DNA from: Escherichia coli
GTDB taxonomy: Bacteria > Pseudomonadota > Gammaproteobacteria > Enterobacterales > Enterobacteriaceae
Assembly (NCBI RefSeq): GCF_050320075.1
Contig: NZ_CP190018.1
DNA length: 64,000 nt
Reading direction: 5' to 3' (one strand)
The notes below the pieces were generated by a model that was given only the letters and a program-made list of their open reading frames with translations, ran no database searches and had not been told where the DNA came from. Positions 1,572 to 63,136 of this stretch are shown piece after piece; the first letter of the stretch is position 1; the number at the start of each line of letters is the position of its first letter. Made by a program: the position numbers and the translations under genes.

Positions 1572-1788
1572 TTAATTTTCTTTTAAAAACAATATGTTGC
1601 AATTTGTTGGATTTTTGGGTTAGGTTGTTTTTTGAACGTTTCCATCAAGTGTAAAGATACGTTTAGCCTTCATAGTGAGTTCAGTTACTGTCTTTTTATC
1701 TGAAATCGGCGCAAACGTGATCATCGCTTAACGAGAAGATCAGCGCCGTCAGGTCCACGCGGCGACAACTCTGAAATATCAGGAGGCA

Positions 1789-2346
1789 TTACGCTTCCTG
1801 CTCTTTCTTGATACGTTGCACCGTCTGTGTGCTGACACTGAAATCTTTTGCTACGCTCCGAATTGATCCACCATTCGCGAGAGCGGCAGCAATTCCTGCT
1901 CGATCAATTGCTTTTCCATTACCACGTTTTGCTATACGTCCAGCGGCCTTAGCTGCGGCGATCCCTTCACGTTGACGCTCAAGCATCATTTCACGTTCCA
2001 TTTGTGCCACTGCTGCAAGCACTGTGAGCATCATATTCCCTGCGGGAGAGTTCTTCCCTGTCTTAAAGTCTTCTTTATGGAAATGCACAGACACGCCGCG
2101 CTCTGTTAATTGCTCAACCGTTGCCAGTAGGTCGGCTGTATTACGGCAAAGTCGATCAATGCTGTGAACATGCAAAACATCACCTTCCCGCACATAGTTC
2201 ATCATTGCCTCAAACTGTGGGCGCTGGGTATTTTTGCCTGACGCTTTATCTTCAAAGACTTTATCAAGAGTTACTCCAGCTAATTGACGGTCTGTGTTTT
2301 GTTGGACAGTCGATACCCTAATGTATCCAATATTAGCCATTTTCAT
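1789..2346 (-). CDS. Serine recombinase (resolvase/invertase family) with C-terminal HTH
   Basis: N-terminal IGYIRVSTxxQ catalytic-serine motif, DRLCR motif and C-terminal HTH (IRSVAKDFSVSTQTVQRI). The second ATG at 2340 has better SD spacing. Confidence 0.9.
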   Translation of the reverse strand: MKMANIGYIRVSTVQQNTDRQLAGVTLDKVFEDKASGKNTQRPQFEAMMNYVREGDVLHVHSIDRLCRNTADLLATVEQLTERGVSVHFHKEDFKTGKNSPAGNMMLTVLAAVAQMEREMMLERQREGIAAAKAAGRIAKRGNGKAIDRAGIAAALANGGSIRSVAKDFSVSTQTVQRIKKEQEA

Positions 2347-2365
2347 TTTCCTTCTGTGTTGATTT

Positions 2366-2472
2366 GTGTGTAGTGATTATTGATCGTGTTGATTAGGTGT
2401 GTAAAGGACTTTTTTCACTACGAAATTCGAAGGTTTTTAGTGTGGTGATTTAGCCTGCTTTATCACTACACG
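2366..2472. promoter_or_regulatory. Recombinase upstream control region with inverted GTGTAGTGAT / ATCACTACAC arms and further CACTAC-like half sites. Possible res or operator site.
   Basis: 10 bp perfect inverted repeat at 2368-2377 and 2462-2471. Related motifs TTCACTAC and TAGTGTGGTGA lie in between. Confidence 0.3.
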
Positions 2473-3260
2473 TCTTGCATGAGAATCATGTAGTTACATT
2501 TTGGTAAAATTAGCAAGCTATTAAATAGTGTGTTTATTTTGAAAAAATAATTTTTTGTTGCATTAAAGGAAACTTGTTCAATAAATGATAGAACGTTTAT
2601 TGAGCAACAATTTTGCAGTGATGCGCTATATGCCGCATTACATAAGGCTTTGCTGATGATAATGTAAAAGTGAAGAAAGCTAACATTGCTCTTTTAAGCT
2701 ACTTTTCATTGAATTTTTAGTATGGAATTACATAGGGATAAACTATGAATATTCTATGATTTACACGAGATATTCTTGCTGTTTAATTCCGGCTTTGGAG
2801 ATCAGGCATTCGCAAGAATACGCTAACGCGTTGCCTGAAAAGCCATTGCACATAATAGAGGTGAGCGTATAGCGAACTATCAATGTGATCATTGCACGAA
2901 TGATAATGAGTGGATATAGATTCTATATATCGTTAGATTGTAGTTTGATAGTTAATGTGTAATGTAGATTGTATGAGCGTATAGCGAATGTTAGTTAGAT
3001 CAACAACAAACTAACCTTTAAATCTCTTTTATCTTCTCATAGATATGGCTATGCGTAGCAACCGAAGGTTAGCCAATCATCTCTATGCAGCCGTAAGGCT
3101 GTTTTGCATGTAATAGTTGTTTGTTGTTGTTAGACAGTTACCAATTTATAGATCAGAGATAGATGTGAGCGTTGAGCGATACACTAATCATAACAACATC
3201 TTCTTACTTTTTAGTTAGTTGTTAGTAGGTTATTGTTATGCGCGCTATTAGCGCATGTAT

Positions 3261-3371
3261 AAAGGTATCATTTTTATCTAAAGGGCTTTAGACATTTTTG
3301 ATACCTTTTTCATCTCTAAAAAAGTGTAATTTTTATCTAAAGGGGCTTTAGACATTTTTTACACCTTTTTC
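3261..3371. repeat. Two adjacent near-palindromes of about 48 bp, arranged as a 59 bp direct repeat. Each is centred on TCTAAAG-GG(G)-CTTTAGA.
   Basis: Palindrome cores at 3277-3292 and 3336-3352. Outer arms are AAAGGTATC/GATACCTTT and AAAGTGTAA/TTACACCTTT. Extra TCTAAAG half sites occur near 3411 and 3488. Confidence 0.7.
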
Positions 3372-3515
3372 TGTGCAAGACACTTACCAGTGTGCACAAT
3401 ACTTATGCTTTTCTAAAGCCGGGAATTTTTAAGTTTGATTGATCAATTGTTAACTTTAAAAGTTACTTTTAACAATCACTTAGACGATCTAAAGCCGCAA
3501 TTAACATAATATAAG

Positions 3516-3545
3516 TTGACATGCAAGCACTTTTTACCGTATAGT
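3516..3545 (+). promoter_or_regulatory. Near-consensus sigma70 promoter (TTGACA-18-TATAGT)
   Basis: Hexamers read directly at 3516-3521 and 3540-3545. AT-rich sequence lies upstream. Confidence 0.55.
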
Positions 3546-3551
3546 GCGGGT

Positions 3552-3605
3552 TTCCTACCTACCCAGGAAATGAGTTCCTACCTACCCAGGAAATGAGTTC
3601 CTACA
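3552..3605 (+). repeat. Tandem 23 bp repeat, about 2.3 copies, each unit a hairpin or operator (TTCCT-N8-AGGAA)
   Basis: TTCCTACCTACCCAGGAAATGAG at 3552-3574 is repeated exactly at 3575-3597, with a partial third copy at 3598-3605. The repeat starts at the predicted +1 of the 3516 promoter. Confidence 0.9.
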
Positions 3606-4556
3606 ATACTATAATTAAACTACAATTAAACTATCTTTTATAAATTCTTTTATCTTTTAAAGAATAATTATAGGGATACCCGTTAGGGAGTCTTCGACTA
3701 TCCCTTAATCTATTGGCATTCGCCAGAACCTTGCACAAGTTAGACTGATGCTTGTCATAACAGATAGTTTTTGTTTTTTGTTAGTAGTTAGCTGATCTAT
3801 GTTCGCTTTCCGCTCACAACGAATATGTAATCTACTATGTGCAAATAGCCTACGGCTTGCGTATGGCTAATAGTCTTGCGCTGTGCGCAGAACGATAATT
3901 AACTAACTACCATCTAACGATTGAAATTTACTTGTGCAATAACCTGAGCATAAGCGAATGGTTGTTAGTGTCTATGCGCTGTGCGCTTCAATAGTTCCAT
4001 TGATGAGGCTTACGCCAATCTAACGATCATCAATCTATTTAAGAGAAAATCTATTGTGCAATACTCTGACGAGTGCAATAACCTTGTGTGCTACGCGTTA
4101 GCGATGTTAGCACATAGACACAGACAACAACCAACAACAAACAAAAAAGAAAGAATGGTTTTAGTAGTTGAAGGTTAAATAAGTTTCTACCGCTTAAATC
4201 AAGCCGTAGGCGAGCTAAACGTATATAAGGTAGGGAAACACTTAGCGGTAATAGATTAGCTCGTTATAGAGCTTCTGAGGAGCTTTACAGGTATTTTATA
4301 AGATGTCTGAAATCAGAGTTTATCTATCCACCATCTTTCCATCATCTGATAAATCAAAAATAAGCCCCTTAAATAAGCCTCTGACGAGATAAACAACCTC
4401 TACATAAGGGAATGTATTGTTTTTATCAAAACCCCCGTCAGAGTGCGATTGAGAGCGTTTTAGACAACAGGGAAGAATTGTACCAGAGTAGGCAGCACAA
4501 AAAGCTAAGAAAAATTATAAGAAATTGAAAATGATCAAGTTTTTTATAAAAGAGGG

Positions 4557-4585
4557 TTGACAAAGCCGCCGTTATGTAGTATTGT
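4557..4585 (+). promoter_or_regulatory. Sigma70 promoter of the early operon (TTGACA-17-TATTGT) with an A/T-rich UP-like region
   Basis: Hexamers at 4557-4562 and 4580-4585. The first gene with a strong SD follows about 110 nt later. Confidence 0.6.
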
Positions 4586-4701
4586 AAGTAGGGAGGGGAG
4601 AAACATCTCTCTCCATCTAAATAATCAAATCACAGAACACTGCACTTTGAGCCGTCAGGCTGCAAGGTGTGTTTTTCTTTTATCTAAATAAGGAGTTTTT
4701 T

Positions 4702-4884
4702 ATGAAATGGTATACACCGGAACACGTCGTAGAGGCATTTAAAAAAGGTGAGCTAACACGACATCAAGTAAGGATGAACAGGAACACAGCGCGGCGCTGT
4801 GGTTATCCAGAGCGTGAAAAATGCTTTGACGATGCACTAAAAATTATTGATGAACTGCGTAAGGCAGAAGCAGAGAAAGAATAA
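4702..4884 (+). CDS. Hypothetical protein (60 aa)
   Basis: ATG at 4702 is preceded by AAGGAG. The track ORF start at 4669 is an upstream alternative codon without an SD. Confidence 0.6.
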   Translation: MKWYTPEHVVEAFKKGELTRHQVRMNRNTARRCGYPEREKCFDDALKIIDELRKAEAEKE

Positions 4885-4907: not shown

Positions 4908-5084
4908 ATGAATATTAATTTTGATTCTGCAACTTATAACGCGTTGTTAAATCGTGCAAAGGCAGAAGGGAAATCAATTCCAAAACTTGTTAATGAATTA
5001 CTAATTACAGTCCTTACAAAGGAGGAACTAAATGAACCAAAACACCAAAACAATTGCCGAAGCAAAAGCGCAATGCCTCAATAA
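4908..5084 (+). CDS. Ribbon-helix-helix (CopG/Arc-like) DNA-binding protein (58 aa)
   Basis: Hand-translated: MNINFDSATYNALLNRAKAEGKSIPKLVNELL..., a beta-strand/helix/helix pattern. AGGAGAAGGAG lies upstream. The 3' end overlaps the next gene. Confidence 0.5.
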   Translation: MNINFDSATYNALLNRAKAEGKSIPKLVNELLITVLTKEELNEPKHQNNCRSKSAMPQ

Positions 5085-5697
5085 GAAAGATAGTAAACAA
5101 ACATATGTAGTAGTTGAACAATGGCTGAAGATGTTTAAAAAGTGGTTCTCACCGTCAGGTAAGGAATACACCGCGACACTTCCAGCCGTTGAAATCTACA
5201 GTTACGTAGCTGGGTTCAATGAACAAGGGCAAGAATGTTACGCCAATCAAAAAACATTAGCTAATATTGGAATGGTTAGTGATCGTCAGGTGCGTAATAT
5301 TATAAATATGTTTATTGATATGGGTGTTCTTTCTGTAGAGGCACGGGACGGGCAAACATCACTCTATAAAGCATTACCCTTTACAGATGCACACATCACA
5401 CCACCGGAAGACGTAAAAACCTCTGTAAACGTAGAACAGCCTGCACCTGAAACACAGGAACCGTTAGAAGCGACACACTCTATTGAGCAGGAAACACAGG
5501 CAGAAATCACGGAACAATCTGATCTTTTTACATGGCTTATTTCCATAGACAGCCAAAAGCCTATGCAAGAAGAAACAGAAAATTTTATAAAACGTGCACT
5601 GACCTCGAAGAGGATAATTCTTGAAGATGATGCTTTTAATGCACTGATGATAGCCCTGAGAAAAGAAAGTGAAATCTATGACTCAATACCATTTTAA
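5032..5697 (+). CDS. Winged-helix protein resembling RepA_N/DnaD-type replication initiators, with an acidic C-terminal half
   Basis: Strong SD AAGGAGG. The segment LPAVEIYSYVAGF...ECYANQKTLANIGMVSDRQVRNIINMFIDMGVLSVEARDGQTSLY fits the initiator wHTH pattern as I recall it. Confidence 0.7.
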   Translation: MNQNTKTIAEAKAQCLNKKDSKQTYVVVEQWLKMFKKWFSPSGKEYTATLPAVEIYSYVAGFNEQGQECYANQKTLANIGMVSDRQVRNIINMFIDMGVLSVEARDGQTSLYKALPFTDAHITPPEDVKTSVNVEQPAPETQEPLEATHSIEQETQAEITEQSDLFTWLISIDSQKPMQEETENFIKRALTSKRIILEDDAFNALMIALRKESEIYDSIPF

Positions 5698-7243: not shown

Positions 7244-7452
7244 TGTCAAAAACTAAACGTGTGCGCCTTCTGGCGCTCACAGAAGAAGGGAAAGCGGGTA
7301 ATTGTTTCACAGTAGGTAAAGTGTATACCGGCTTACTCGACACTTACACCCGCCTGATGCACGTAACCGATGATAACGGTAACGATCAAACAATCGTTTT
7401 AGATGGTAATTGCGTATTTGGTGAGTGGGAACTGACAACCGAAAAAAGTTGA
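7243..7452 (+). CDS. Hypothetical protein (69 aa)
   Basis: Translationally coupled ORF and the last gene of the early operon. Confidence 0.7.
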   Translation: MSKTKRVRLLALTEEGKAGNCFTVGKVYTGLLDTYTRLMHVTDDNGNDQTIVLDGNCVFGEWELTTEKS

Positions 7453-7471
7453 AAATAATTGCATTTACCTA

Positions 7472-7500
7472 TTGACTTTTACTAACAGAAATGTTAGAAT
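7472..7500 (+). promoter_or_regulatory. Sigma70-like promoter (TTGACT-17-TAGAAT)
   Basis: Hexamers at 7472-7477 and 7495-7500, 20 nt after the early-operon stop. Confidence 0.5.
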
Positions 7501-7506
7501 AATAAA

Positions 7507-7749
7507 TGTTGGGTTTGGAATCGAAAATAGGTGTTAGCTGGCGTTAATCCTTCTCCCGATTCTAATCCTACACGAAAGCGGGGTAGACCTCAAGGGGTCG
7601 CGCCCTATCTAACCTATCCCGCTTTCCCTTTACAGTGATTTTTTAGAAATTGTTTCCCTCGTTAATAGTTTCATTTTATTTTCCTTATTGCTTTATCAAA
7701 ATTGTGTCTTAAGAATGCAGGGGCTACGGATTTGGCCCCTCATCTTTTT
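7507..7749 (+). ncRNA. Candidate structured leader or ncRNA 1
   Basis: No ORF longer than 20 codons. A 13 bp stem (7574-7586 with 7614-7626) encloses the AGGG-gtcgcg-CCCT hairpin. Ends at the terminator-like hairpin at 7719-7749. Confidence 0.3.
7719..7749 (+). terminator. Intrinsic terminator-like hairpin (AGGGGC...GCCCCT followed by T5)
   Basis: 6 bp GC stem at 7719-7724 and 7735-7740, with a T-run at 7745-7749. Confidence 0.5.
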
Positions 7750-7869
7750 AACCAACTGCGAAGCATGAAACACTTTCTAAAAACACTGTTTACAGTGTCT
7801 ATAAACCCCGTATAAACAAATAACGGTGTATATCTGTTTCTTGACAACAGTTTTCTACTAAGCTTAAAG

Positions 7870-8290
7870 CTGAATATGTTTTTGTTTGTTGGTGTTTATT
7901 AAGGTGCCAATCTTAGAACGCGAAAGCGTGGATGATCCCCGAAATCATCTCGGCACCGCCTCCTATTAAAATGAGAATCCAAAAGGTTTGAAAGTTAATA
8001 GGTGATTCCTGAAAGTCTGATCGATGCATCCACATTGTGAAAGACAGCGATTAGCCGTCGCACGAATAACAGGTTTATAGATTCCTCTCCAAAGGGGGCG
8101 ACCTCCTAAGCGCCTACTCCCTGTAAGCCTGTTATTCACCCCTCAAGGGTATATAACAATAAGCAATCTTATTCTTATATGTCCTCCTCTTTAAGTTCAT
8201 ATAAACTGCGATTTAGTAACACTCTATAACATCCTTCAAATGTTGTATTCATAAAGCCGGAAGCTTTCCCCTTCCGGTTTTATTTTTATC
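7870..8290 (+). ncRNA. Candidate long structured RNA 2 (about 420 nt). The 5' end is uncertain.
   Basis: A possible promoter is TTGACA at 7841-7846 with a weak -10 TTAAAG. A three-way junction is formed by GGTGCC 7903-7908 with GGCACC 7952-7957, the GNRA hairpin ACGC-GAAA-GCGT at 7918-7929, and GATGAT/ATCATC at 7931-7949. An 8 bp stem pairs 7962-7969 with 7995-8002, and a 10 bp stem pairs 8064-8073 with 8128-8137. A strong terminator sits at 8253-8290. No ORF longer than 20 codons. Confidence 0.4.
8253..8290 (+). terminator. Intrinsic terminator (CCGGAAG-ctttccc-CTTCCGG followed by a T-rich tail)
   Basis: 7 bp GC-rich stem extended by A-U/G-U pairs, then TTTTATTTTTAT. It lies about 40 nt before the first head-module gene. 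Confidence 0.7.
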
Positions 8291-8330
8291 AGCACTAAAC
8301 AAGACTGTTAGGAATAAAGGTAAAGCAATA

Positions 8331-8938: not shown

Positions 8939-9967
8939 ATGATTATTGGTAATGAATCCGTCGATCTGGCTCCGCTGTTTAGTCTGCACGACTCTCGCAA
9001 CTTCCTGTTAACTTCTCTCGACTTTACTGATCCGGTAGGTGTGAGTTCTCATAAAGTGGCTGTTAGCCAACTGGTGGAAACTAACGAATCTCTGTTCAAC
9101 AAAGAAACCTCTCGTTTCTCTTCTGAACATAACGTGACTAAACGTGAACAGGGTAAAGAATTTTTAGTAGAGATCCCCTACTTCCTGCGTGAAGATATGA
9201 TTAAGCCGCAAGACGTGCAAGGCAAACGTAAACCAGGCGCTACCGTTGAAGAAACTCTGACAGATATCTACGCGGAATATGTTGCTAAGCACCACATTGC
9301 TTTCCAGCGTACTAAAGAAAGCGTGCTGGCTGCTTCCCTGTTCTCTGGTCGCACTTACACCCCTAAAACTGATGATGTGCTGATCCAGTGGGGCGATCTG
9401 TTTAGTGTTGTTCCGATGACTGCAACCATCGACGCATCAAGCACCACGCCTTCTATGGTGTTCCAGCAATTCGATCAGATGCATACAGACGTTATTACTA
9501 AAGCACAAAGCCAGGCGGCTGCTGTAGAACGTATCGTTGTATTCTGTAAACCTGCTGCTTTCAACGCTATCCGTTACAGTGCTGGCATGGTTAACGCGTT
9601 CCAGTATGCAAGCCCTACCGATGACGCAAACATCGTTTATAGCGTGCGCTCCCTGCTGCCAGGTGTGACTACCTTCACTATTCCTGGGACTAACATCGAT
9701 ATCGTTAAAGTTACTGATCCGCTGCTGCTGGCTCATATGACTTCTGATGCGGTTGCTGTTCCGAAGTTCGCTAAAGGCTCTAACGTCTATCAGAACATTT
9801 TCAGCGCTCCTTCTTCAACGTTCGACCTGCTGAATTCTGGCGCGGCTGAATATTACAGCTATGCGTTTAGCCCAGCACGTAACGACGCTGTAAACGTAGT
9901 TACTGAGAATAGCCAGATGGTTGTAAACCACGGCGTAGGCTTCACTGTACAGATCACAGTAGCGTAA
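8939..9967 (+). CDS. Major capsid protein, lambda gpE-like family
   Basis: 342 aa, close to the size I recall for gpE (about 341 aa). The IKPQDVQGKRKPG segment resembles the conserved P.D.QG.R..G region of the capsid E family. It follows a decoration-like gene as in lambda D-E. Confidence 0.75.
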   Translation: MIIGNESVDLAPLFSLHDSRNFLLTSLDFTDPVGVSSHKVAVSQLVETNESLFNKETSRFSSEHNVTKREQGKEFLVEIPYFLREDMIKPQDVQGKRKPGATVEETLTDIYAEYVAKHHIAFQRTKESVLAASLFSGRTYTPKTDDVLIQWGDLFSVVPMTATIDASSTTPSMVFQQFDQMHTDVITKAQSQAAAVERIVVFCKPAAFNAIRYSAGMVNAFQYASPTDDANIVYSVRSLLPGVTTFTIPGTNIDIVKVTDPLLLAHMTSDAVAVPKFAKGSNVYQNIFSAPSSTFDLLNSGAAEYYSYAFSPARNDAVNVVTENSQMVVNHGVGFTVQITVA

Positions 9968-12279: not shown

Positions 12280-13455
12280 TTAAGCCTTAAAATCAATATT
12301 TAATTCATATCTTACTAATTCTACATATTCAGCTAATTCTGGAATGCTTGCCCCTTGTGAGTAGGTGCGAAAGGCTTCTGTTTTAGCTCTCTGCTCTGTA
12401 TGTCCGGTAATGGCACCGATCCGCTGTTCAGGCACTCCGGCACGATCAAGACAAGTGATAAACATCCCGCGCAAGCTGTGAAAGCATTGTCTATTTGTAG
12501 CGATTGGCAAGACGCTACGACGTAAACGTGAGAACGCTTGAGAATAGAACGGGCCTTTCTTACCGTCGATTCTTTTTACTTTGTTCGAGTGAGGGAACAA
12601 ATATTCACCATAATTATGATTTAAATATTCATCGACAATAATCGATAGTCTCGAATGTATCGGAACGTGCCTGATCCCTGCTTTAGTCTTACTTTTGCTG
12701 ATATAAAAACAGCGTATTCCTTCCACAGTTACAACCTCTGACTTTTTCAGACTTGCCAGTTCGTCTAATCTGCATCCTGAAAACAAGCCCATTAAAATAA
12801 TATTTCTGATCTCCGGCTCCGCTGCATCAAGTAGCTTTTGCATTTGTTCAGGTGTAAACGGTTGATAACTCTCGATTGTGCGACGTGCTTCGAGATTATG
12901 ACCGTGAAAAGGGTTACTGTCTGGTATTCCGTCATAACGGCGTTTAGCAAATTCATAGAGCGATCCTAAGCATGTAAGCCAGTTTTGACGAGATTGATCG
13001 GCTGCTCCTCGTTGCTTCTGGTCATCTAAGAATACTGTTACAAGCCGTCTGCCTATTTTCTCAATATGAATATCATCTTTCTGAATGCTTTGTAAAAATA
13101 GCTCAACGGCCCTTGCTGATTTCTGTAGTGTTGAGTATGAACGACGCTCTCTGTAGCATTCGGCGTATTCGTCACGTATTAAGCATAGGGAAGGCGATGC
13201 ATAACCGCGTTTTACGGCTCTTTGCGTGTTTTTATTGGCCCTTGCCTCTGAATGTAAGGATTCAATAGCTTGTTGTAACCTCCTTTCGGGGTTATCAGGA
13301 TTATGTTTCCGCTTTAGTTCCTCCCATTCTAATAATAGATGGTTTCTGAATCTTCTCGCCTCATTCAGATCTCGTGTAGATGTGCTTTTTCTCCACAACT
13401 TGTAAGGGTAAAGATGACGTAAGTATTTAGGAACAAAAATCGGTGATGCTGCCAA
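12280..13455 (-). CDS. int: Tyrosine recombinase/integrase, 5'-truncated. The first about 5 codons of the open frame are IS1 end sequence.
   Basis: The C-terminal catalytic motifs HSLRG, GH and RTY are present. The N-terminal arm motif (VPKYL...KSTSTRDLNEARRF) begins abruptly. The ORF start (TTG at 13453-13455) lies inside the IS1 IRL, which begins at 13442. Confidence 0.85.
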   Translation of the reverse strand: MAASPIFVPKYLRHLYPYKLWRKSTSTRDLNEARRFRNHLLLEWEELKRKHNPDNPERRLQQAIESLHSEARANKNTQRAVKRGYASPSLCLIRDEYAECYRERRSYSTLQKSARAVELFLQSIQKDDIHIEKIGRRLVTVFLDDQKQRGAADQSRQNWLTCLGSLYEFAKRRYDGIPDSNPFHGHNLEARRTIESYQPFTPEQMQKLLDAAEPEIRNIILMGLFSGCRLDELASLKKSEVVTVEGIRCFYISKSKTKAGIRHVPIHSRLSIIVDEYLNHNYGEYLFPHSNKVKRIDGKKGPFYSQAFSRLRRSVLPIATNRQCFHSLRGMFITCLDRAGVPEQRIGAITGHTEQRAKTEAFRTYSQGASIPELAEYVELVRYELNIDFKA

Positions 13456-29085: not shown

Positions 29086-29795
29086 GTGCACAGAAAACCC
29101 CCAGCTAGGCTGGGGGTTCCGGAAAGCTTTCAGCTTTGAGCCAGTTATTCAAACCCCTTTTGATTTGTTAAAACACCTTGCGGTCTGGCAACTGCAAGTG
29201 TCAAACAAGAAATCAAAAGGGGGTCCCAATGGGGGACGAAAAGAGCTTAGCGCACACCCGCTGGAACTGTAAATATCACATAGTTTTTGCGCCGAAATAC
29301 CGAAGACTGGCGTTTTACGGAGAGAAGCGTAGGGCGATAGGCAGTATTTTGAGAAAGCTGTGTGAGTGGAAAAGCGTACGGATTCTGGAAGCAGAGTGCC
29401 GCGCAGATCATATCCATATGCTTGTGGAAATCCCACCCAAAATGAGCGTATCCGGCTTTATGGGATATCTGAAAGGGAAAAGCAGTCTGATGCTTTACGA
29501 GCAGTTTGGGGATTTGAAATTCAAATACAGAAACAGGGAGTTCTGGTGCCGAGGGTACTATGTCGATACGGTGGGTAAGAACACGGCGAAGATACAGGAC
29601 TACATAAAGCACCAGCTTGAAGAGGATAAAATGGGGGAGCAGTTATCGATTCCATATCCGGGCAGCCCGTTTACGGGCCGTAAGTAACGAAGTTGAATGC
29701 AAATGTCAGATCGTATGCGCCTGTTAGGGCGCGGCTGGTAACAGAGCCTTACAGGCGCATTTGAAAAACCTCCGGCTATGCCGGAGGATATTTAT
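29086..29795 (+). mobile_element. IS200: IS200-type element (IS200/IS605 family). The ends are approximate.
   Basis: Left-end perfect hairpin at 29096-29118. A long stem occludes the tnpA RBS (CCCCTTTTGATTT...AAATCAAAAGGGG). A 152 aa Y1 transposase is present, and right-end hairpins lie at about 29718-29790. Confidence 0.8.
29229..29687 (+). CDS. tnpA: IS200 TnpA (Y1/HUH transposase)
   Basis: MGDEKSLAHTRWNCKYHIVFAPKYRR..., HIHMLV (the HUH motif) and GYYVDTVG. 152 aa. Confidence 0.9.
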   Translation: MGDEKSLAHTRWNCKYHIVFAPKYRRLAFYGEKRRAIGSILRKLCEWKSVRILEAECRADHIHMLVEIPPKMSVSGFMGYLKGKSSLMLYEQFGDLKFKYRNREFWCRGYYVDTVGKNTAKIQDYIKHQLEEDKMGEQLSIPYPGSPFTGRK

Positions 29796-34135: not shown

Positions 34136-34218
34136 CCCAGAGGTATTGATAGGTGAAGTCAACTTCGGGTTGAGCACATGAATTACACCAGCCTGCGCAG
34201 ATGCGCAGGTTTTTTTTT
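34136..34218 (+). ncRNA. omrB: OmrB small RNA
   Basis: Starts CCCAGAGGTATTGATAGGTGAAGTC and ends with the GCCTGCGCAGATGCGCAGG-T9 terminator. It matches my recollection of OmrB, and it lies between galR and aas. Confidence 0.9.
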
Positions 34219-34332
34219 GCCGGTCATCAATCTGTAACAGTAACCGACAATTTACACACCTCGTTGCATTTCCCTTCATTCCTTTGCGTTTTCTCACTGG
34301 CGAAGAGTCGTCGTGCAGACCACAATCAAGAT

Positions 34333-34420
34333 CCCAGAGGTATTGATTGGTGAGATTATTCGGTACGCTCTTCGTACCCTGTCTCTTGCACCAACCTGCG
34401 CGGATGCGCAGGTTTTTTTT
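34333..34420 (+). ncRNA. omrA: OmrA small RNA
   Basis: Starts CCCAGAGGTATTGATTGGTGAGATTATTCGG and ends with the CCTGCGCGGATGCGCAGG-T8 terminator. 88 nt. Confidence 0.9.
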
Positions 34421-62840: not shown

Positions 62841-62917
<77 letters not shown>

Positions 62918-62949
62918 TCACCGTACTGCTTTATTTCATCAAATTTGAT

Positions 62950-63026
<77 letters not shown>

Positions 63027-63059
63027 TCACCGTACTGCTTTACTTCATCAAATTTTAAT

Positions 63060-63136
<77 letters not shown>

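Follow-up and report, generated by a model that had tools for sequence, protein, structure and literature searches.

What does a 2.35-kb stretch of DNA that encodes almost no protein contribute to a small integrated island of Escherichia coli? The stretch occupies positions 2347-4701 of the window, by which we mean the whole 64,000-nucleotide piece of E. coli chromosome analysed here, and is 100% identical to NZ_CP123240.1. It lies in an island of ~12-13 kb, a member of a tRNA-integrated family in E. coli that carries a capsid gene. A preliminary description made from the sequence alone had noted a near-absence of open reading frames (ORFs) and had proposed an iteron origin with an AT-rich element and a downstream initiator. 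The ORF-free stretch is real: its only ORF of at least 60 amino acids (aa) is 3981-4178 (65 aa, GTG start), the remaining ones have 41-44 aa, and RefSeq annotates nothing there in NZ_CP123240.1. The functional reading was partly right, in that such a layout is present while the repeats and the core had been assigned wrongly. Comparison with related islands makes it probable that the stretch serves a family of satellite-like E. coli islands as their non-coding region for replication origin and control, with a proposed origin core at 3552-3672.

The region is a mosaic of modules (Table 1), which were mapped by an all-against-all comparison of 14 E. coli loci and then with loci from IMG/VR and metagenomes. 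These are a recombinase-proximal block (M1), an array of ATTRCACA boxes (M2), an imported block, tandem iterons (M3), an AT-rich stretch, a hairpin- and repeat-rich block (M4) and the control block of the early operon (M5). At the hypervariable M3 position, tandem repeats precede an AT-rich stretch. M4 comes in two types that for the most part cannot be aligned with each other. Type I includes the window and type II includes all loci from the IMG/VR capsid search; alignments of type I with type II loci are collinear throughout.

The evidence that carries the origin reading comes from M3 and from the gene of an initiator-like protein at 5032-5697. Two features that the preliminary description had omitted stand at 3552-3672: a pair of exact tandem 23-bp repeats (TTCCTACCTACCCAGGAAATGAG), each with GGAA-N5-TTCC (0 expected by chance), and beside it a stretch of 85% AT, against 65% for the whole region. 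Every type has such an AT-rich stretch after its last iteron set. The M3 repeats fall into four types, CCTAGGAAATGAGTTCC-like (the window), GGTAGGTCAYWGTGA-like, CCACAGAAWWCTGTTA-like and CCCTATCAA..TGATA-like, and the N-terminal part of the initiator also has four types. When iteron type was scored as the dominant repeat type in the 230 nt adjoining M4, 43 of 45 distinct sequences had an iteron type that matched their initiator type (12/12 for A, 11/12 for B, 12/13 for C and 8/8 for D). The match persists despite reassortment of the 1.1-1.5 kb that separates the repeats from the gene, and initiator types A and C are each found with both M4 types. Because the iteron type tracks the initiator type and the AT-rich stretch adjoins the repeats, we propose that 3552-3672 is an iteron-type origin core with the 5032-5697 protein as its putative cognate initiator.

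Many loci also hold single leftover copies of other iteron types upstream of the matching set. Two to four iteron types stand in series in L006, L045, L052, L066 and L078, some of which have two full iteron-plus-AT cassettes, and in multi-type loci only the set nearest M4 matches the resident initiator. The series looks like a fossil record of replicon swaps. Another locus (L081) has two copies of a fifth repeat type, GATGACCGGGGGGGTCGGTCAC, inserted past a duplicated beginning of the three-way-junction-like element, GGGATACCCGTT, which suggests that this motif is a recombination junction.

The initiator itself had been described as RepA_N-like, which was not borne out: neither the window protein nor any of the three other initiator types matched RepA_N in Pfam scans. 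The window protein matches Pfam HTH_36 (E=1e-4; 22.3 bits, against a curated cutoff of 25) and PHROG replication-initiation families of the O-like and DnaD-like kind (to E=7e-6); the other three types match the same PHROGs at 1e-7 to 5e-10, plus Pfam HTH_36 and related helix-turn-helix families. PDB sequence and NCBIfam searches with the initiator returned no match, and a single-sequence AlphaFold model, with a predicted local distance difference test score of 53, was too poor for a fold search. All four types end in ...YD(D)(F)(D/S)IPF (...YDSIPF at 5677-5697 in the window; also L003, L005, L006 and L051), and the IPF tip is invariant. [quoted passage not shown] The likeness suggests that the initiator tail may be a mimic of the SSB tail that recruits SSB-interacting host proteins.

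The second family-wide feature is a pair of box arrays. The 7-mer TT[AG]CAC[AG] has 7-14 hits per region against 0.7-1.5 in dinucleotide shuffles, a 6-12-fold over-representation; its fuller form is ATTRCACA, and left-side copies are often followed by GGG. Among 54 distinct sequences, 196 boxes lie on the + strand and 4 on the - strand to the left of M4, whereas inside M4 the counts are 23 and 177. The boxes point inward from both sides in 54/54 sequences, and their polarity is the same in both M4 types despite the otherwise differing sequences. Since the boxes are family-wide while the types of initiator, recombinase and integrase vary, their binder would be a host factor or a conserved protein of the element. 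It is probably one conserved factor, for which a host protein such as DnaA and the 60-aa early protein (which gave no family match) are candidates only. The region contains no perfect DnaA box (TTWTNCACA), the ATTRCACA form matching 7-8 of 9 positions; DnaA-like matches with at most one mismatch number 137 across the window, with 140.5 expected, and are locally dense at 3355-4063. M2 was also considered as a structured RNA and rejected: its + strand gave z-scores of -2.6 to -3.2, but RNAalifold found no consensus fold over 49 distinct sequences (-0.8 kcal/mol). In L099 the first M2 box is inverted in place, reading GCCTTGTGTAATGAGGC instead of GCCGCATTACACAAGGC, by a small inversion between short flanking complementary bases.

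Several points weigh against the origin reading. The initiator assignment comes from weak profile matches, the HTH_36 score being below its cutoff and the structural model poor. Relatives carry three to six iterons, the window only two. The boxes depart from the DnaA consensus at one or two positions and show no enrichment across the window. The 43/45 and 54/54 counts are not independent events, the loci being related, and the real support for the iteron-initiator match is its survival through module reassortment. Finally, an origin of ~120 bp leaves ~2 kb of ORF-free DNA unaccounted for.

The layout first proposed for this locus took TGAGCG-N3-AGCGAA units as the iterons and a core at 3250-3550 as the origin, both served by the 5032-5697 protein; we consider this quite improbable. 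Most of the underlying motifs were confirmed. The 10-mer ATCGTTAGAT, reported once on the left and twice inverted on the right, lies at 2929 (+), 3912 (-) and 4018 (-), with 0.10 expected; the twin 48-bp palindromes are at 3261-3308 and 3321-3368, 60 bp apart; the stretch with nested inverted repeats and a GATC (at 3441) is 75% AT over 3420-3480, as an origin of this kind would have it; and the near-consensus promoter is TTGACA-18-TATAGT at 3516-3545 (11/12 positions). The TGAGCG units are present with one inverted, but they number five and not at least six: four with at most one mismatch (2862, 2974, 3166 and, inverted, 3802-3816) and an N2 variant at 3945-3958. With up to two mismatches the window holds 8, against 6.1 expected, whereas the four closer hits are clustered, being all of those in the 64 kb and lying within one 1-kb interval (2862-3816), which favours the proposed layout. 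Two GCGC-N3-GCGC palindromes are exact (3878 and 3976), a number at chance (2.3 expected), and both sit in a 12-nt exact repeat that is conserved also in the other M4 type. Against the layout, the TGAGCG unit is constant across initiator types, unlike the repeats of the 3552-3597 type. In type I repeat units it is the sequence adjoining the box, roughly TGTGCAATAA-CCTGAGCGTAAGCGAATGG-TTGTTAG.

The provenance of the block that holds most of these motifs bears on the same question. In addition to TGAGCG units, 2767-3548 contains the twin palindromes, the 75% AT stretch and the promoter; just 75 of 5426 E. coli genomes have this block. It is absent from L002-L014, no other type I or type II locus examined carries it, and most family members with the same kind of initiator lack it. 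A locus in strain BA92 (L113) shows 92% identity to window positions 1708-3561, and the similarity stops just past the 3516-3545 promoter. Behind this promoter L113 has ~180 bp, then two small ORFs and a DEAD/DEAH helicase gene. The region is therefore chimeric: its left part, from the recombinase through the promoter, comes from an L113-type element and is joined to M3-M5 of an element with an O-like initiator. The helicase, the likely cognate replication protein of the TGAGCG block, is not encoded in the window island. The block also lacks a significant folding signal relative to shuffles (z -0.9 and -1.5). It may be the native origin of the L113-type element, with the helicase gene as replication gene, and the core favoured by the preliminary description, if an origin at all, probably belongs to that replicon and is an orphan here. 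L113 (2076-3405 and 3787-5271) has the same recombinase, M1, M2 and TGAGCG/twin-palindrome block, with the O-like initiator module replaced by the helicase.

Beside the proposed origin core, M4 seems to have maintained a potential to form hairpins, which might act in RNA, in single-stranded DNA at an opened origin or as pairs of protein sites. M4, or 3552-~4297 in the window lineage, might be the gene of a long structured non-coding RNA (ncRNA), an alternative that the preliminary description also named; this is compatible with an origin, and we regard it as possible but rather unlikely. In the window such an RNA would run from the 3516-3545 promoter to the hairpin and T-run at 4267-4297 and would act in the satellite life cycle. 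On both strands, M4 folding is stronger than that of shuffled sequences (z -3.0 on +, -3.8 on -), which favours an ncRNA, but local z-scores are modest, mostly -1 to -2.5. Nested hairpins with stable-looking loops (GNRA- or UNCG-like) can be read directly from the sequence of both M4 types, a common grammar, and the types share the short conserved cores CCGCTCACA and TTGCGCTGTGCGCAG around a hairpin of differing sequence. Rfam 15 covariance models (including GOLLD, ROOL, OLE and group I/II introns) nevertheless gave no match in the window at the gathering threshold, and at E up to 10 the segment 2200-4800 gave only two hits, both at chance level, while L051, a type II locus, gave none. Helices are kept in a type I haplotype swap at 4046-4119, where three short helices retain 9 of 9 tested pairs (22-50% in slid controls), two pairs having changed on both sides and one from A-U to G-U, and, by eye, in a shifted 6-bp outer helix (GTGCTA/TAGCAC versus GCGTTA/TAACGC), but this covariation comes from essentially two haplotypes and is effectively one evolutionary event. 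By RNAalifold, type I has three compensatory pairs and type II has none, and a metagenome scan with the M4 core pattern yielded 55 loci of the same two types with few loop changes, which added little covariation power. In type II, variation for the most part avoids the predicted stems (variable sites in 10 of 282 paired and 64 of 383 unpaired columns), as expected of a folded RNA. The G-U versus A-C counts show no strand asymmetry, however, G-U being similar on both strands, and no M4 promoter conserved across the family was found, the strong 3516-3545 promoter being lineage-specific. Natural variants lose 100-180 nt by recombination between the repeats TGCGCTGTGCGC, ATCTAACGAT and CTTAAAT, and M4 indels fall between repeated motifs; the stems often contain oriented protein-type boxes. 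At ~95%, M4 shows no higher conservation than neighbouring genes (93-98%), a comparison that proved uninformative.

The hairpins could instead act in single-stranded DNA once the AT-rich stretch has opened, as primosome-assembly or priming sites, with the SSB-tip-like tail of the initiator attracting PriA, DnaG or the chi subunit of the clamp loader. Helix conservation without strand preference and the position of M4 directly beside the AT-rich stretch in every type would fit, as would the absence of any recognised helicase or primase gene among the island ORFs scanned and the D/S-IPF ending of all initiator types. We consider this doubtful, the reading being inferential throughout and the C-terminal resemblance spanning four to six residues. 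Known single-strand initiation sites are ~70-120 nt long, against 650 for M4. A more speculative version, to which we give similarly little credence, is that 3673-4320 belongs to a new class of structured nucleic-acid elements in E. coli phage-satellite-like islands. It would be a folded long RNA, or else a set of single-stranded DNA hairpins extruded on origin opening, and would work with the SSB-tip-mimic initiator; the equivalently placed L113-type block, now at 2767-3250, would also be a member. If so, M4 would load host priming machinery or sense a helper phage, which would explain the ~2 kb of gene-free DNA.

To the right of M4, the M5 promoter and leader hairpin are kept in both M4 types, with the hairpin lying between the promoter and the coding sequence (CDS) at 4702. 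The natural reading of this arrangement is a promoter-proximal terminator that would yield a leader RNA of ~90 nt unless read through.

At the other end, M1 probably comprises the promoter and binding sites of the recombinase. The neighbouring serine recombinase is Hin/Mpi-like, there are several long inverted repeats, and repeat arrays flank a promoter-containing core, so that the segment might be an invertible switch of this enzyme, or the repeats a partition (centromere) or packaging site; each of these is highly improbable. A Hin/Gin-type invertible switch was rejected: hix/gix-like sites are not enriched (43 against 33.7 expected) and none lies beside the recombinase, full-length E. coli matches are all collinear, and inversion of the M1 segment between its 10-bp inverted repeats was seen in none of 24 loci. 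Some members also keep the region though the recombinase is replaced by an unrelated gene. The centromere alternative raised in the preliminary description is without support, no ParA/ParM/TubZ-type or centromere-binding family having turned up when island ORFs, including part of the small ones, were compared with Pfam and PHROGs. Nor does packaging point here, a lambda-cosN-like sequence lying elsewhere (8093-8104); a cos site inside the region was rejected, with no lambda or P2/P4 cos match there. The former sequence, AGGGGGCGACCT, agrees with lambda cosN at 10/12 positions and falls in a second ORF-poor stretch of ~0.9 kb (7452-8330) upstream of the capsid gene cluster, which is a possible cos/packaging region and contains, besides, GC-rich hairpins and, near 8255-8290, a strong terminator-like hairpin. 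In L007-L010 (~2844-3395 in each) an unrelated 183-aa + strand ORF without a Pfam match stands in place of the recombinase, and the non-coding region is retained.

Under the origin reading, the 5032-5697 protein would bind its own iterons at 3552-3597, and binding would open the adjacent 85% AT stretch. The initiator would then recruit host replication proteins, possibly through its SSB-tip-like C-terminus. Two inward box arrays, M2 with the imported block on the left and M4 on the right, flank this proposed core, and one conserved box-binding factor, from the host (e.g., DnaA) or the 60-aa early protein, may build or regulate the initiation complex on them. M4 would additionally keep its hairpin-forming potential. 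The M5 promoter and terminator would gate expression of the initiator operon, and M1 would serve the recombinase. In this lineage the 0.8-kb control block from a related, helicase-encoding element type has been recombined in, and its strong promoter would now read into the iterons.

The closest parallel is in the satellites of Vibrio cholerae known as PLEs (elements that resemble a phage-inducible chromosomal island), which have a large non-coding region with several repeat types, one of them an iteron set, and in which the initiator DNA-binding domain and the origin covary as a swappable module, as shown experimentally (PMC7145576, PMC8263062). The E. coli region shares the large multi-repeat non-coding region, the restriction of the initiator's iterons to one repeat family and the swapping of an initiator/origin module. 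It differs in that the PLE initiator is RepA_N, in hosts and helper phages, and in adding polar box arrays and a 0.65-kb hairpin-rich block. Like lambda, the island has an initiator with a winged-helix-type N-terminal part (PHROG O-like) and tandem, partly palindromic iterons followed by an AT-rich stretch; in ori-lambda, too, a palindrome lies beside an AT-rich stretch. The lambda iterons are inside the O gene, whereas those of the island are ~1.4 kb upstream of the initiator gene, past M4, M5 and two small genes, and no P-like helicase loader was recognised in the island. Phage-inducible chromosomal islands (PICIs) such as the Staphylococcus aureus pathogenicity islands (SaPIs) likewise have satellite origins that, according to Ubeda et al., are reportedly specific to their own initiators, short repeats flanking an AT-rich stretch. 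SaPI origins, however, are ~0.3 kb long, sit immediately 3' of the pri-rep genes and depend on a helicase-type Rep, whereas the island initiator is small and of helix-turn-helix type and its flanking arrays are family-wide and not initiator-specific. GOLLD and ROOL RNAs resemble M4 in size (~0.6-0.8 kb), in occurring on mobile phage-related elements and in having many short stems with stable tetraloop-like loops; M4 differs in having no Rfam match, conserved promoter or strand signal, and minimal covariation. Iteron plasmids (pSC101, P1, F and RK2) share the direct repeats, the AT-rich element, a cis-encoded initiator and additional short boxes nearby, which in the island resemble DnaA boxes at 7-8 of 9 positions (for general reviews, see PMC4980987 and PMC4081077). 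The island departs from them in its non-consensus boxes, in two long opposed arrays over >1 kb and in being an integrated island with a capsid gene. Comparison supports the ordinary part well, an apparent iteron origin with a modular initiator, and leaves the size of the region, the inward-pointing box arrays and the hairpin-rich M4 as its unusual parts.

The islands form an uncharacterised family of small integrative, capsid-gene-carrying, phage-satellite-like elements. Relatives adjoin tRNA genes (thrW, glyU, leuX and a tRNA-Ser) or other sites, their gene order is identical, and in E. coli genomes, IMG/VR and metagenomes alike an unannotated gap of 1.7-2.9 kb lies in the same place. At least part of the region is present in 713 of 5426 complete E. 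coli genomes (~13%) and most of it in only 38. A phage collection gave no DNA match to the region, a plasmid collection matched in only two E. coli records, and a capsid-protein scan of species-representative genomes gave one locus, in Escherichia, with no other genera obtained. A literature search found no publication on this island family, and RefSeq annotates almost all of its genes as 'hypothetical'. An identification with Sp1 of O157 Sakai and CP-933H of EDL933 at thrW proved wrong, Sp1 being a lambda-like remnant. The proposed origin, the four swappable initiator/iteron specificities, the early promoter and the attenuator offer handles on whether these islands are active phage satellites. 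The serial iteron types may be the trace of replicon swaps that occurred repeatedly, as in the arms race between phages and PLEs, and hint at selection by origin-targeting factors of helpers or competitors. Novelty, if any, could lie in the inward-pointing box arrays and the hairpin-rich block.

Table 1. Features of the ORF-free region and of the island around it, in window coordinates.
Feature	Position	Strand	Remarks
Serine recombinase (DNA invertase/resolvase-like)	1789-2346	-	Pfam Resolvase E=1e-38; PHROG DNA invertase E=2e-62; RefSeq 'recombinase family protein'
M1, recombinase-proximal block	2347-2565		varies together with recombinase type across loci
M1 10-bp inverted repeats	2368-2377; 2462-2471		GTGTAGTGAT; ATCACTACAC
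M1 promoter-like site	2405-2376	-	
M2, ATTRCACA box array	2566-2766	+	in all family members, 76-94% identity
Imported block	2767-3548	+	782 bp between M2 and M3
Imported block, ATTGCAC boxes	2846, 2892		
Imported block, TGAGCG-N3-AGCGAA units	2862-2876, 2974-2988, 3166-3180		
Imported block, hairpin with T-run	3088-3108		
M3, tandem 23-bp iterons	3552-3597	+	
AT-rich stretch	3598-3672		85% AT
M4 type I, hairpin- and repeat-rich block	3673-4320		
M4 three-way-junction-like element	3673-3704		
M4 inverted arms	3715-3739, 4054-4076		
M4 inverted TGAGCG unit	3802-3816		
M4 boxes	3838, 3933, 4055	-	
M4 TGCGCTGTGCGC repeat	3877, 3975		
M4 nested hairpin	4088-4113		
M4 terminator-like hairpin	4267-4297		
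M5, early-operon control block	4321-4701	+	~75% identity common to family
M5 repeats			GCGTTTTAGA-type
M5 early promoter	4557-4585	+	TTGACA-17-TATTGT
M5 leader hairpin with T-run	4642-4681	+	
Ribosome-binding site	before CDS at 4702		
First early gene (60 aa)	4702-4884	+	family-wide; 77% aa identity between window and type II L051
Run of small genes	downstream of ORF-free stretch	+	
Initiator-like protein, 221 aa	5032-5697	+	HTH_36 winged-helix N-terminal part; variable-length C-terminal part
Major capsid protein	8939-9967		
613-aa island protein			matches PHROG family annotated as tape-measure protein
Tyrosine integrase	12280-13455	-	

Outside the island, a P4-like island stands in tandem upstream of the window in the same genome (L001, 1-16400). 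Its genes include a primase-like one with DUF927, Icd-like and SSB genes and ProQ/FinO; three more, large and hypothetical (2.5, 2.1 and 2.8 kb), could be defence cargo. Further along the window are remnant genes of E. coli type III secretion system 2 (ETT2; ygeH, ygeG and yqeH-K) at ~14-24 kb, and ordinary chromosomal RNA genes at 29096-29219 (STnc490), 34136-34420 (OmrA and OmrB) and 62841-63136 (three tRNA-Met).

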